From: Candidatus Thorarchaeota archaeon
Lineage (GTDB): Archaea > Asgardarchaeota > Thorarchaeia > Thorarchaeales > Thorarchaeaceae
Assembly (NCBI GenBank): GCA_016839605.1
Contig: JAEOTX010000180.1
Coordinates: forward strand, 1-34,772
Direction of reading: 5' to 3'
DNA: 34,772 nt
Made by a program: the position numbers and the translations under genes. The notes under the pieces are model-generated. The model did not search any database and was not told the origin of the DNA. It worked only from the letters and a program-made list of their open reading frames with translations. Positions 3,541 to 25,053 of this stretch are shown here, one piece after another (within the stretch, counting starts at the first letter, position 1; each line of letters begins with the position of its first letter).

Positions 3541-5664
3541 TCATTCTCCTCCAATCGTAATCTTCACATCCACTGCAATTACACCATTACCCTTCTCGTA
3601 AGCGAATGCGGGATTGATGTCAAGCTCGACAATTTCCTTGAAGTCGCAAACAAGCTGAGAGATTCGCAGAATTGTATCTGCTATTGCATCAATATCACTT
3701 GGCTCCTCGCCTCTCACTCCCTGAAGCAATGTCCCCATTTTTGTCTCAGCAATCAAATCAGATGCATCACTGCGAGTCATTGGTGCAAGTCTAAATGAAA
3801 CATCTTTTAGATAATTGACAAAGATTCCACCTGCTCCAAACATGATTAGCGGACCGAATTGAATATCCCGGGAACACCCGATAATCAGCTCTTTGCCCTT
3901 CATCGCCATTTCTTGGACATCAACACCATAAACTACTGCTCTGGGTACATGTGTCCTAACATTATCCAAAATCTGAAGAAAGGCATTTTTGACCTCTTCT
4001 TCGGATTTCAAACCAATCATAAGTCCACCAATGTCGCTCTTGTGAACGATGTCAGGGCTTGCTATCTTCATAACCACTGGGAAGCCAATTTCAGCAGCAA
4101 TCGCTTGAGCTTCCTCAGCACTTGTAGCAAGTTGCGTTCTTGCCACACGAATACCATACGCTTCAGCAATCACATGCGCTTCGCTGCCGAGCATCACTCT
4201 TCTATGATCATTACGAACGTGCTTGATTATCTCTTTCACCCGCTTCTTATCCACTTTGAACTTCGGAGGTGTTTCATCTTTCAAGCTGTCTCTCACAACT
4301 GTATATCGATAGAGCTCGGCAATTGCATTCACTGCACGTTCTGGAAAGTCAAATACAGGGATTCCACCTTCATTCAGAACAATACGCGGATAAGTCATTG
4401 AATTACCGCCCATAAAGACAGCTAGAAGGGGTTTGGTTGGATACTTCTTTTTGGATTCAACAATTACCTGTGCAGTTTCAGTTTCTTTTGTCATAGCTTG
4501 GGGAGTAAGTAAGACAAGAACAGCATCAACATTTTCATCTTGTAAGGTTGCGTCCACGCAAAGAGCATAATCCTGAGGCTGGGCGGTCCCAAGTGCATCG
4601 ACTGGATTATATACAGAAGCTGCAGAGGGGAGTCCTTTCTTCATCGTTTCAATGGTGGATGGCGAGAATTTTGCCATTGCTAGGCCACTCATTTCAACGG
4701 CATCAGTAGTAATGATTCCAGGACCTCCTGCATTTGTAACGATTGCAACCCGATTTCCGCCCGGCAAGTGACAGTCATCAAACACATTTGCTACATCAAA
4801 CAACTCGGACATACTATCTGCCCGTATCACACCACACTGCTTGAAGGCAACGGAATATGCTGTATCGCTCCCGGCAAGTGAACCGGTATGAGATGAAGCG
4901 GCTCGTGCACCAGCTGTGCTCACTCCTGATTTGACCACATAGATGGGCTTGTGAGGCGCGATTTTTCTACAGGCTTCCATGAACTTCTTGCCATCCACCA
5001 CTGATTCGATGTAGAGCAATATGAAATTCGAGTCAGGGTCTCGGCCAAACGACTCTACGAAATCAGTCTCGTCCAGCTGAGCTTTGTTTCCAAGACTTAC
5101 GAATTTGGAGAATCCAATCTTCTCCATCAGACTCCAGTCAAGAATGCCAGTCATCAACGCGCCAGACTGAGAGGCAAAAGCCACACTTCCCTTCTCCGGA
5201 GTACCAGCGGCAAATGATGCATTGTAAGGAGCAAATGTGTTCACTATTCCAAGACAGTTGGGTCCCTGTACAATCATGTCATATTTCTCAGCAATCTCGA
5301 CTATCTTCTTTTCAGCTTCTTGGCCTTCATGTCCAATCTCCTTGAAACCCGCGGTGATAATGACGAGAGCGGTAACGCCCTTCTGCCCGCATTCCTCTAT
5401 GACAGGAAGGACATACTTTGCAGGGATTACTATAACTGCTACATCGATCTCTCCCGCTACTTCGGATACTGACCTGAATGCTTTCAGGCCTAGAATCTCC
5501 CCACCCTTAGGATTGATTGGGTATACTCGACCCTCAAAGCCGCTATCGATGAGGTTGCGGACCACATCGTTTCCTAGTTTTCCCTTGGTAGAAGATGCGC
5601 CAATCACGGCTATCGACTTTGGATTGAATAATACATCAATACCCTTCTGTCTGTCCAAGTTCAA
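3541..5664 (-). CDS. acdAB: Acetate--CoA ligase (ADP-forming), fused alpha/beta
   Basis: SIAVIGAS CoA-binding fold, GPNCLG, SQSGA, SHTGSLAG (phospho-His), NAGGPG, and ATP-grasp KIASPDIVHKSDIGG and ELDINP. Start is TTG at 5664 or 5658 (uncertain). Confidence 0.95.
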   Translation of the reverse strand: MNLDRQKGIDVLFNPKSIAVIGASSTKGKLGNDVVRNLIDSGFEGRVYPINPKGGEILGLKAFRSVSEVAGEIDVAVIVIPAKYVLPVIEECGQKGVTALVIITAGFKEIGHEGQEAEKKIVEIAEKYDMIVQGPNCLGIVNTFAPYNASFAAGTPEKGSVAFASQSGALMTGILDWSLMEKIGFSKFVSLGNKAQLDETDFVESFGRDPDSNFILLYIESVVDGKKFMEACRKIAPHKPIYVVKSGVSTAGARAASSHTGSLAGSDTAYSVAFKQCGVIRADSMSELFDVANVFDDCHLPGGNRVAIVTNAGGPGIITTDAVEMSGLAMAKFSPSTIETMKKGLPSAASVYNPVDALGTAQPQDYALCVDATLQDENVDAVLVLLTPQAMTKETETAQVIVESKKKYPTKPLLAVFMGGNSMTYPRIVLNEGGIPVFDFPERAVNAIAELYRYTVVRDSLKDETPPKFKVDKKRVKEIIKHVRNDHRRVMLGSEAHVIAEAYGIRVARTQLATSAEEAQAIAAEIGFPVVMKIASPDIVHKSDIGGLMIGLKSEEEVKNAFLQILDNVRTHVPRAVVYGVDVQEMAMKGKELIIGCSRDIQFGPLIMFGAGGIFVNYLKDVSFRLAPMTRSDASDLIAETKMGTLLQGVRGEEPSDIDAIADTILRISQLVCDFKEIVELDINPAFAYEKGNGVIAVDVKITIGGE

Positions 5665-21697: not shown

Positions 21698-22933
21698 TTA
21701 AGCGACATTTGTCTTATCGAGAAGTGGCTCAAGAGAGATCTCCATCTGAAGCCTTACTTTTTCTTCGAAAGACTCCAGTATCTCGGATTCAATTCTCACT
21801 TTGAAATCCTTTGCTCGAGCAATCTCACGTTTAATGTCGTCTCTGATTCTCAGCATATCGCTGCGATGATAATCAAGGTTCTTTTCAGCTTCATTCAGTG
21901 CCTCTTGGAGCTTAGCGCTTTTGGCATAAACATCAGAATCAGCAAACGCATGACGTTTCTCTTCCAATTCCTTTGCTTTCCCTTGAAGCTCATCTAGAGA
22001 GCCATTGCTAATTGCTTGGACTTCCTCGATTGCCCTTCGGGCCAGTCGATCTTTCATGGGAAGCTTGCCCCTCTCAATTGCCTCTCTAAGCCCAGTCAAG
22101 CCCTCCAACAAGCCAGGATATCCAATTGGCTCTTCCACGATGGCATCATAGGGGTTCTCAAAGTAGTCGTTCAACGCCTTCTGTCCTGTAGCACTCACTC
22201 GCACTCCTGTATCATGTTGGAAGAATTTCTTCACCTGTTTCTTAAGAGGGTTCAATTTCATTCTGAGCAGACCTGCTACATGGTCTGCCTCAGAATCAAT
22301 GTTCAGCAAATCTGCGACATTCGAGGTTTCAATGAATTCATTGTAGGCGTTCTGTGCTTCATCTAATTCGCTCCTTGCTGTTTCAATCTTCGTTCGAGTG
22401 GTACGGATCTGTTCCTCGTAGACCTCTTTACTGAAGCCAAGGTCTTGGAGAGTCTGAATTCTACCTCCGATGCGCTCTAAATCCTTGAGCCAGCTGAACT
22501 CGTAGAGGAGTTTCTGAATCTTGTTCATCTCCGACATGAGCTCCTTCATGCTGACATCCAACTGCTTGATAGTGCTCTTGTGCTTCTTATCCATCCGTCT
22601 AATCCAACGAGCACCAGCACCCCAGAGTTCTTGAATGAAACTTCGAATCTCGTCTTGAAGAGCCTCAGTACTTTCATACGTGATATCCTTGCCGACGTAG
22701 AAGTCATTGGTAATATCTTCGACCTTCATTGCGAATCTCGTCGCAATTCCTATGGAGTCATGGTCGTCATCTTCTCCGGGCTCTTTCAGGTTCCGTGACA
22801 TTTCCTGAATATCCTTCAGCGACCTCTCTGCAACCCTGTAGCTCTTCTCGGCCTTCTTCGTGAAATCTTTGGACCTCTTGGCCAAGCGCTTGCGATACCA
22901 TTTCTGTAACTGCTCGATTGTGAGGGTTGTCAT
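21698..22933 (-). CDS. Hypothetical helical/coiled-coil protein
   Basis: 411-aa charged helical ORF; AGGTGG SD; no recognisable motif. Confidence 0.8.
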   Translation of the reverse strand: MTTLTIEQLQKWYRKRLAKRSKDFTKKAEKSYRVAERSLKDIQEMSRNLKEPGEDDDHDSIGIATRFAMKVEDITNDFYVGKDITYESTEALQDEIRSFIQELWGAGARWIRRMDKKHKSTIKQLDVSMKELMSEMNKIQKLLYEFSWLKDLERIGGRIQTLQDLGFSKEVYEEQIRTTRTKIETARSELDEAQNAYNEFIETSNVADLLNIDSEADHVAGLLRMKLNPLKKQVKKFFQHDTGVRVSATGQKALNDYFENPYDAIVEEPIGYPGLLEGLTGLREAIERGKLPMKDRLARRAIEEVQAISNGSLDELQGKAKELEEKRHAFADSDVYAKSAKLQEALNEAEKNLDYHRSDMLRIRDDIKREIARAKDFKVRIESEILESFEEKVRLQMEISLEPLLDKTNVA

Positions 22934-23075: not shown

Positions 23076-23879
23076 ATGTCCGAGATCTTTGAAACCGGTA
23101 ACCGACGTCCAAGGCTCGACATCAGTTATGCTGTCGAATGTGCGTCATGAGGCGTGGGTCGCATCGGTTTCTACATTAGACGCCTCGGACTGATAGATCC
23201 CACCGGAAAGGAACGACTGCTGCTCAAGAATCCTGCGGACTATAAAGGCGGAATCTGGGCGTCGTATGTCGTGGATGGGACAGTTGCTGTCGTTGAGTCG
23301 ATTGAAGCCGAAACCATCTCTGTGGCGGAACGCAGACAGGAAAAGGGTAGCCTCAGTCTGATGTTGAACCACACGCCTCAAGAATTTGAGGAACCTGTGG
23401 TCACCTTCACGCTAGACATGTGGAGCTACAACAAACCAGTCTTATTGCTCCAGCATACGACAACGAACGTCAGTTCTAGCTACGTCCAAGACCTGAAGGC
23501 CTACAGTATCTTTGACTTCGACATTGGAGGTCCGATGAGCTACAAGGACGATAAGGGCACATTTGACGATGAGAACGGACTCGTCATAGCCTATGACGAA
23601 AGCCAGCTCTCTGTGGCTATGTCCTCACGGCCAAAACCAGATGGGTGGGAGATATCATCTCCACTGAAGCTCAAAGTAGAATCAGATAATCGCGACCTGA
23701 AGAACAACCCCGAATTGGGGCCGATGGACATTGCCACCGCTCTGCAATGCAACTTAGGCGATTTACAGCCGGGTGATAGCAGAACGGTAGAAATTGTCCT
23801 CGCCTCCGCGCACGGCCTAGACGAGGTAAGAAGCCTCATTGATGCGTCATGGGGCTTTTTCAAGAAGAAAATCCGATGA
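23076..23879 (+). CDS. Candidate selenoprotein (Sec25 in CxxU), 267 aa, unknown beta-rich family
   Basis: ATG 23076 gives MSEIFETGNRRPRLDISYAVECAS-TGA(23148-50)-G, in frame with ORF 23154..23879. A SECIS-like hairpin overlaps the stop codon. Confidence 0.85.
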
Positions 23880-23920
23880 AATCTACACCTAAAGCAATGC
23901 GGTGTCGATTGAGGCCGGGT
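23871..23920 (+). promoter_or_regulatory. Eukaryote-like type II SECIS element
   Basis: Helix I ATCCG/CGGGT. Core A-TGAA (23876-80) / TGAG (23910-13). Helix II ATCTACACC/GGTGTCGAT (8 of 9 paired). Apical AAA (23891-93) plus mini-stem GC-AAT-GC. Confidence 0.85.
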
Positions 23921-23940
23921 AGCAACCCGTGGAACGCAGC

Positions 23941-23996: not shown

Positions 23997-24380
23997 TTAC
24001 TGTTCTTCAAGGAAGTTAGCCAGCATCACAGCGGTTGCCGTGAGCTTTGCCAGCTGTCCTCTGTTTTCCATATCACCACCAGATAACAAACCCATGTCCA
24101 TTAAGGAACGGAGGTTCCATTTCACAGTACTATAGGCTACTGAAGTCCTGCGAGATACTAGGTCTGCTAACGCCGTCACTGTCAGATCATAATGCCTTAA
24201 CAGCTGTGCACTCACTCTCAGAACATGTTTCTGAGTCTCACTCATTCTCATATCTGCTAGAGATAGGAATGATGCAGCGAGGCTCTCAAAAGAAGGCTTG
24301 GCGAAAGGTTTGTGACTCTCTTGGAATACCTGGTTGGCACTAGAGAATACATTCACCTCTTTGGCGAATTTGGCACTCAC
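23997..24380 (-). CDS. Winged helix-turn-helix protein (start uncertain)
   Basis: MSETQKHVL...TVTALADLVSRRTSVAYSTVKWNLRSLMDMGLL...AKLT. Confidence 0.8.
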   Translation of the reverse strand: MSAKFAKEVNVFSSANQVFQESHKPFAKPSFESLAASFLSLADMRMSETQKHVLRVSAQLLRHYDLTVTALADLVSRRTSVAYSTVKWNLRSLMDMGLLSGGDMENRGQLAKLTATAVMLANFLEEQ

Positions 24381-24531: not shown

Positions 24532-25053
24532 TCATCGCATTTCTTCTGGAATATCCAGTCCGAGAGAACCCAGTTTTGCAAATCCCTGACTATACAGACT
24601 CATGTGATGGCGAATATCTTCCTCAATTTCAGCTAGAGAGGATAGAAAGGGCACGATCTCTTCTAAGTCGCTTTTCTTGTATTCATCCATCATCGTGTGA
24701 ATAACATCACTCATTCCAAGCATTGCCCCTTGGATGACCTCGCTCAGGTCGATCATCGATTGAACAACTTCTCGTGCATCAGGGTCGGGCATATAGGGCA
24801 TGAAGTCTTCTAGTGCCACACTGGTTTCTATTGTCTTTTCAACACGACCAGGTATAATCTCATCATACATCGAATGCATCCAGCCAAGACGTTCCTCAGA
24901 TGTAAGTCCTCTGAGATTATCTAGGGAGAAATAACCTGTCCAAGGACCGAATTCGGAACTCTCATACTGAATCCAGTTGTCAAAGGCACCTAGAACTCTG
25001 TGCCAACCTTCCGCGGTTTCGGACATTTGTTCATCCCGCAAGTCTGTCATCAA
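24532..25053 (-). CDS. Hypothetical acidic helical protein (start may be ATG 25026)
   Basis: 173-aa ORF with normal protein composition; no motif recognised. Confidence 0.75.
   Translation of the reverse strand: MMTDLRDEQMSETAEGWHRVLGAFDNWIQYESSEFGPWTGYFSLDNLRGLTSEERLGWMHSMYDEIIPGRVEKTIETSVALEDFMPYMPDPDAREVVQSMIDLSEVIQGAMLGMSDVIHTMMDEYKKSDLEEIVPFLSSLAEIEEDIRHHMSLYSQGFAKLGSLGLDIPEEMR

Follow-up and report, generated by a model that had tools for sequence, protein, structure and literature searches.

A predicted beta-supersandwich protein of Asgard archaea is almost certainly a new selenoprotein family

A survey of 409 Asgard genomes, conducted as a search from known families, recorded seven selenoprotein families (Huang et al. 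2024, PMC11227280), and those described in Asgard archaea are SelD, FrhA/VhuU, HdrA, FrhD/VhuD, Prx-like, AhpF-N-like and DsbA-like proteins (Huang 2024, PMC11227280; Mariotti 2016, PMC4989117). Their SECIS elements are recognized by a GA_GA core, an upper stem, apical adenines and a location near the 3′ end (PMC11227280). In Loki VhuU.1, the stop codon doubles as the AUGA of the SECIS element, a closeness suggested to keep that stop from being recoded (PMC4989117). A 2026 review lists 119 prokaryotic families, 11 of them in archaea, where the named ones also occur in bacteria or methanogens; among the catalogued selenoproteins, CxxU motifs are mostly redox-linked (PMC13188914).

We compare with these systems a gene on a 34,772-nucleotide stretch of DNA (the window; source contig C117) from a Candidatus Thorarchaeota archaeon, whose assembled genome comprises 3.08 Mb and is 80% complete. 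Standard gene calling reports a 241-aa ORF from GTG 23154. An earlier note, made from the sequence alone, had proposed that this ORF is the truncated form of a selenoprotein, and its reading of the frame is exact: ATG 23076 lies in frame upstream of the called start and opens a frame of 267 codons, in which the sole internal stop is TGA 23148-50, at codon 25 within C-A-S-U, and which terminates at TGA 23877-79. The distance from the putative selenocysteine (Sec) codon to the SECIS element is 726 nt. The features of the locus are collected in Table 1. No signal peptide or membrane segment is apparent in the 267-aa protein, whose closest named homologues are mostly from Thorarchaeota, and public database entries of its homologues begin at many different starts, with lengths of 143-241 aa (WP_287588354.1 is an example of a truncated entry). 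A promoter and terminator scan of the locus, using a bacterial model, was uninformative.

Table 1. Coordinates of the gene, its motifs, its SECIS element and its conserved neighbours in the window
Feature	Position	Strand	Remarks
Coding sequence, 267 aa, putative Sec at codon 25	23076..23879	+	predicted stand-alone beta-supersandwich and C-terminal helix
Codons 1-24, omitted by gene callers	23076..23147	+	third-position entropy, synonymous excess, DSSP strands
CxxU motif, Cys22 (TGT 23139-41) to putative Sec25 (TGA 23148-50)	23139..23150	+	turn between predicted strands 13-22 and 29-40
Acidic DxDxGG...DD motif, residues 147-159	23514..23552	+	common to secreted non-Sec relatives
Eukaryote-type (type II) SECIS	23876..23913	+	AUGA core overlapping stop codon, helix II, AAA bulge, mini-stem, GA
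Small conserved hairpin 3′ of the SECIS core	23916..23929	+	GGG, NAGCA-type loop, CCC
411-aa protein, faint VPS28 hit	21698-22933	-	conserved neighbour in 27-30 Thorarchaeia loci
Small winged-helix-like/helix-turn-helix-like protein	23997-24380	-	conserved neighbour in 27-30 Thorarchaeia loci
173-aa protein, no Pfam match	24532-25053	-	conserved neighbour in 27-30 Thorarchaeia loci

By comparative measures, the codons that precede this TGA evolve as coding sequence. The entropies by codon position are 0.76, 0.43 and 1.47 bits for codons 1-24, compared with 0.77, 0.48 and 1.33 bits for codons 26-50, and the DNA farther upstream is flat at 1.6-1.7; in close pairs, codons 1-24 carry 30 synonymous versus 12 non-synonymous changes. 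The earlier note had allowed that homologues might show no conservation upstream of the TGA, or that the TGA might be an assembly error, and neither is the case. Homologues are conserved on the upstream side, and the TGA was present in 30 of 30 Thorarchaeia matches covering the N-terminus (one each) in a first search and in 60 of 61 full-length Thorarchaeia copies in a wider one, the exception being a copy with cysteine (CSSC, genome G373). Misassembly is excluded, since 60 Thorarchaeia genomes share the TGA and a contig of a separate RNA library, made from sediment in 2025, reads across it without a single mismatch; the contigs of this library cover parts of the gene and cannot prove transcription or strand. 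Position 22 is Cys in 28 of 29 Thorarchaeia loci.

Beyond the Thorarchaeia, aligned position 25 is always TGA or Cys, in every clade, which is the pattern that the earlier note had looked for in homologues; it forms an invariant column in alignments A2 and A5, and no reactive residue other than Sec/Cys25 is invariant in the family. The proteins range over 254-323 aa and differ in their other cysteines. The aligned position lies in a CxxU motif in Borrarchaeum, Sigynarchaeum and family f28, whereas most Lokiarchaeia members of family f9 have lost Cys22 and read xxxU. A CxxC motif occurs in the family of Promethearchaeum syntrophicum (QEE16515.1) and Lokiarchaeum ossiferum (UYP48442.1), and a CxxCxxC motif in a few proteins without the C-terminal arm. 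A long C-terminal arm occurs in 28 members, among them every one that lacks Cys22, and in all 28 it terminates in a conserved Cys. Two apparent departures dissolved on inspection. A seeming vWA fusion in G179 comes from a run of N that hides the stop; its relatives end at 254 aa, followed by a separate downstream gene. A seeming replacement of Sec by Arg at three Lokiarchaeia loci is instead a frame-breaking insert after an intact TGA. In one further copy (G020:C8:20150-20515), an internal stretch of about residues 82-216 is deleted in frame, and no SECIS element was found where the gene seems to end, which may reflect decay or misassembly.

The SECIS element combines AUGA (23876-79), helix II (23881-89 with 23901-09), apical AAA (23891-93), a GC/GC mini-stem and GA (23911-12), and thus has the makeup of the eukaryote-like Asgard elements. 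Its AUGA is formed with the gene's own stop codon, an arrangement repeated in nearly all of 26 Thorarchaeia loci. Of the hairpin that the earlier note had drawn, the AUGA/GA core, the AAA and the mini-stem stand, the 9-bp helix II becomes eight pairs and one U-C mismatch, and helix I (23871-75 with 23916-20) falls away, being 63% paired versus 62% in shuffled controls and so without comparative support; its 3′ bases belong instead to the conserved hairpin at 23916-29. Helix II itself covaries across the 26 loci: each of the eight pairs has double-sided changes, pairing holds in 92% of cells, and the covariation score of 0.58 was reached by none of 500 shuffles, against 0.10-0.19 for slid controls. 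A strict SECIS pattern has only seven matches in the whole 3.08-Mb genome, one of which follows a [NiFe] hydrogenase large-subunit gene. This rarity, together with the covariation of helix II across 26 homologues, places the element beyond chance. Hairpins like the one just 3′ of the core also follow other SECIS elements of the source genome. No Rfam SECIS model matched at E<=10, and the folding energy of the region was not significant (RNAfold z-score -1.3), as is expected for a non-canonical SECIS core.

The element also follows the TGA allele, as the earlier note had anticipated. A loose SECIS pattern was found at 61 of 64 TGA loci, at none of 8 Cys loci and in 6% of random windows, figures that form a contrast and not a p-value, the pattern having been loosened after the data were seen and kin not being independent. 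In the Thorarchaeia Cys copy of G373, the SECIS is decayed. The position of the element varies between lineages. A typical Loki SECIS lies mostly 11-32 nt past the stop in the f9 Lokiarchaeia, and at two Sigynarchaeum loci the sole core is of a non-canonical ACGA type. In Sigynarchaeum-type homologues (L035-L037, L129, L130), the element is mostly contained in the final codons; its 5′ half falls within the last 15 codons of the coding sequence, and the stop codon sits in the 3′ strand of helix II.

The source genome encodes the machinery for selenocysteine, the lack of which would have counted against the earlier note. Genes for tRNA-Sec, EF-Sec, SecS and PSTK are clustered on contig C181, where the PSTK-like match (E 4e-36) is below the cut-off yet lies beside secS, and SelD has its own in-frame TGA. 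ARAGORN found only 13 tRNA genes in this genome (G000), a low count that probably reflects incompleteness or introns at unusual positions. G373, which is 89% complete, gave no match for SecS, PSTK or EF-Sec, with a TGA-bearing selD still present.

More than 200 of the 400 Asgard genomes searched contain the 267-aa family, usually as a single copy. A profile search gave matches in 70 of 85 Thorarchaeia genomes, a few of them weak and paralogous. Two Lokiarchaeia families had matches in 123 of 135 and 10 of 14 genomes, the family that holds Sigynarchaeum in three of four and Borrarchaeum in five of five, and in these families the counts of SecS are nearly equal to those of the 267-aa protein. 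SecS-negative families had no strong match except in one 66% complete genome, whose copy bears the TGA. Two SecS-positive families, f13 (0/3) and f7 (0/5), had no match, and f24 gave weak paralogous hits only. Since f7 and f13 carry SecS and not this gene, a role in the core Sec machinery is disfavoured.

With its in-frame UGA conserved on both sides, its Cys homologues, its SECIS element and a genome that encodes the Sec machinery, the gene has the features of an Asgard-type selenoprotein gene. It resembles the known ones in its 3′ AUGA_GA type II SECIS, in the overlap of stop codon and AUGA, in its occurrence across the same three Sec-using classes and in having Cys homologues without SECIS. 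It differs from them in encoding an unrelated protein. The 267-aa protein matched no Pfam family at E<=0.1, NCBIfam 20.0 returned no selenoprotein model among 41 family members, and an ESM Atlas query with a natural homologue (P0090) returned unnamed Asgard clusters only. None of the 119 prokaryotic and 7 Asgard catalogued families has a name or model that matches it, a few table rows without a model being compared by name only; a search of the openly accessible literature on accessions and on new Asgard selenoproteins found nothing. The earlier note was thus right that the protein is not SelD, HdrA, VhuD/U, Fdh or Prx and that annotation truncates it, and the published Asgard lists do not contain it. 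Its omission from the Asgard surveys follows from their having searched from known families. On this comparative evidence, the 267-aa protein is almost certainly a new selenoprotein family that uses a known recoding system. A second candidate unlisted selenoprotein of about 72 aa (L116) lies elsewhere in the source genome (G000:C233, about 4219-4599, minus strand), with an N-terminal hydrophobic anchor, a Thr-rich linker, a Cys 3-4 residues before the TGA and a short Pro-rich tail. A canonical SECIS follows about 65 nt downstream, and TGA and SECIS are kept in the four of four genomes in which it was found (homologues L117-L119).

In most f9 Lokiarchaeia homologues (L030, L046-L070, L083-L112), none of the codons ATG, GTG and TTG occurs ahead of the TGA. 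Instead, a GGAGG is followed 9-10 nt on by ATA (sometimes ATT or ATC), and an in-frame stop often lies two to three codons upstream of it. This spacing and the upstream stop make it likely that these homologues initiate at AUA. In one Lokiarchaeia genus, 5 of 30 loci read (L083-L087, in G273, G264, G235, G242 and G239) carry a frame-breaking insert of about 28-32 nt that starts one base after the TGA and can adopt a bulge-helix-bulge fold (CTTG/CAAG helix, 3-nt bulges). Cutting these inserts at canonical sites restores the frame of the sister genes in five of five, and the insert is a candidate tRNA-type mRNA intron.

The protein is predicted to be a single-copy, stand-alone beta-supersandwich shared by Thor-, Loki- and Sifarchaeia. 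With Sec modelled as Cys, AlphaFold2 returns a galactose-mutarotase-like supersandwich with one long C-terminal helix (pLDDT 91, pTM 0.90), the C-terminal end being modelled at low confidence (pLDDT about 63). In this model, DSSP places two strands of the sandwich within codons 1-24, at residues 3-5 and 13-22. Structurally, the model comes closest to the N-domains of glucodextranase and glucoamylase (1lf6, 1ulv; Z 23.3, rmsd 2.4 A over 227 residues). As a group, the glucoamylase, glucodextranase and GH94 phosphorylase N-domains score Z 20-23 and the mutarotases Z 14-16, at 8-16% identity, and the model of the L. ossiferum homologue matches the same folds at Z 18-20. In the predicted models, the supersandwich spans the whole domain. 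The earlier note had expected a beta-rich protein without a thioredoxin fold, which the model bears out: it is nearly all beta and is matched end to end by the supersandwich. Thioredoxin-fold CxxU proteins of the SelW/Rdx type share with it a CxxU at the end of a beta-strand but differ in fold and size, with no homology detected. The GH15/GH94 N-domains match over the whole length, but the 267-aa protein lacks their catalytic (alpha/alpha)6 barrel, its frame ending at 267 aa with the SECIS placed at the stop, and its first hairpin bears the CxxU/CxxC. In four of five genomes searched, the source genome among them, no detached GH15 barrel turned up.

Sequence homology reaches a different set of proteins. 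The distant relatives are N-domains of secreted or surface proteins, both archaeal and bacterial, in which they are joined to transglutaminase, PKD or Ig-like domains, and they match residues of about 105-260, including DxD...DD, with an hhalign probability of 98.7, without reaching the CxxU hairpin. Many of them have signal-peptide-like N-termini and extra domains, whereas the 267-aa family is single-domain and has neither. Since these secreted non-Sec relatives share it, the DxDxGG...DD motif is a feature of the scaffold, and since the match stops short of the CxxU hairpin, the scaffold appears borrowed. This fold is absent from the selenoprotein catalogues consulted.

The genomic neighbours of the gene differ between classes and indicate no pathway. 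In Thorarchaeia, the gene is flanked by the divergent 411-aa gene and the convergent small helix-turn-helix-like gene. About 30 Lokiarchaeia loci (L030, L039-L042, L044-L070) have a gene for a Roadblock/LC7-Ras GTPase fusion as the next gene upstream, in the same orientation, and in the CxxC clade such a fusion lies within 60 nt upstream. The order in Borrarchaeum (L032, L033) is a divergent NifB-like radical SAM gene, the 267-aa gene, a GcvH-like gene and a convergent secS.

Taken together, the conserved TGA/Cys column, the covarying SECIS and the Sec machinery support the earlier note's central claim, and we hold it very probable that UGA25 is read as selenocysteine, directed by the downstream SECIS. 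The terminal UGA, located inside the SECIS core, would be too close to be recoded and would end translation. If UGA25 were a true stop, the protein would start downstream and the 24-codon upstream frame would be regulatory or a relic. The databases do call the gene from downstream starts, and many of the Lokiarchaeia copies without a standard start before the TGA have an in-frame ATG seven codons after it. However, those called starts are scattered, coding constraint acts on the upstream codons, which supply strands of the predicted fold, intact Cys homologues exist, and the SECIS tracks the TGA allele; we give a true stop hardly any credence.

For the role of Sec25, we lean, with little more than even confidence, toward a selenol/thiol oxidoreductase or redox switch acting in the cytoplasm. 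The attacking nucleophile would be Sec25, which lies on an exposed hairpin turn and would cycle through a selenenyl-sulfide. The resolving cysteine would be Cys22 in Thorarchaeia, Borrarchaeum and Sigynarchaeum, and the C-terminal Cys on the helical arm in Lokiarchaeia without Cys22; its presence in all f9 members that lack Cys22 is what a resolving role would predict. The sandwich, in this view taken over from glycoside-hydrolase-like N-domains, may provide a substrate- or partner-binding surface. This redox reading is favoured by position 25 being the sole invariant reactive residue, the conserved acids being shared with secreted relatives that lack Sec, and by the mostly redox-linked character of catalogued CxxU motifs (PMC13188914). 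A different use of the same residues, as metal or Fe-S ligands in a knuckle on the beta-hairpin turn (a sensor, chaperone or structural site), is the main alternative, though rather unlikely. The motif does sit on a hairpin turn, followed by Gly in Thorarchaeia, its Cys homologues resemble metal-binding knuckles just as well, hypD lies divergently upstream in one lineage, and several clades reach three S/Se ligands (CxxC or CxxU with the C-terminal Cys, or CxxCxxC without the arm). Most f9 members, however, have only Sec and the C-terminal Cys, and Thorarchaeia only CxxU, two ligands being too few for a monomeric site; there is no conserved His or further Cys. A Zn homodimer prediction on a natural Cys copy (L031) scored 0.15 and speaks neither for nor against such a site. 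The near-confinement of strong matches to SecS-bearing families would also suit an accessory of selenium metabolism, for instance a protein that carries, stores or senses selenium in connection with the Sec pathway and whose synthesis is tuned by Sec supply. The Borrarchaeum gene lies one gene from secS, with the GcvH-like carrier between, and one CxxCxxC copy follows a DsrE-like gene. But the secS linkage is restricted to one genus, the co-distribution could simply reflect common descent, some Sec-using genomes carry Cys versions, and the SecS-positive f7, f13 and f24 offer nothing beyond weak paralogous hits in the last, all of which make such a role improbable. Mutarotases carry an invariant His/Glu pair, and the fold resemblance alone could suggest a carbohydrate-binding or mutarotase-like enzyme, or a detached glycoside hydrolase N-domain, with Sec as a regulatory or catalytic addition; three members also score faintly on TIGR01577. 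Against the resemblance stand the low identity, the missing barrel, the lack of an invariant His or Glu column in the A2 and A5 alignments (at the sequence level only) and the lack of a conserved sugar-metabolism gene alongside, and we consider this highly improbable.

The protein probably represents an ancient selenoprotein family of Thor-, Loki- and Sifarchaeia, as widespread as SecS and the first on a glycoside-hydrolase-like beta-supersandwich, with a selenium chemistry of its own (redox or metal), and with AUA initiation and, in some species, a tRNA-type intron as a further level of control. If so, it would be an Asgard-specific family, and its function is testable, since two Asgard archaea in culture have Cys orthologues, DSAG12_02345 in P. 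syntrophicum and NEF87_004727 in L. ossiferum. The family would show that a survey that starts from known families can overlook major members of the Asgard selenoproteome and that public entries are truncated. The family also supplies a natural set of eukaryote-type SECIS variants, which overlap the stop codon, lie inside the coding end or fall in the 3′ UTR, and which bear on how Asgard archaea read SECIS elements without SBP2.
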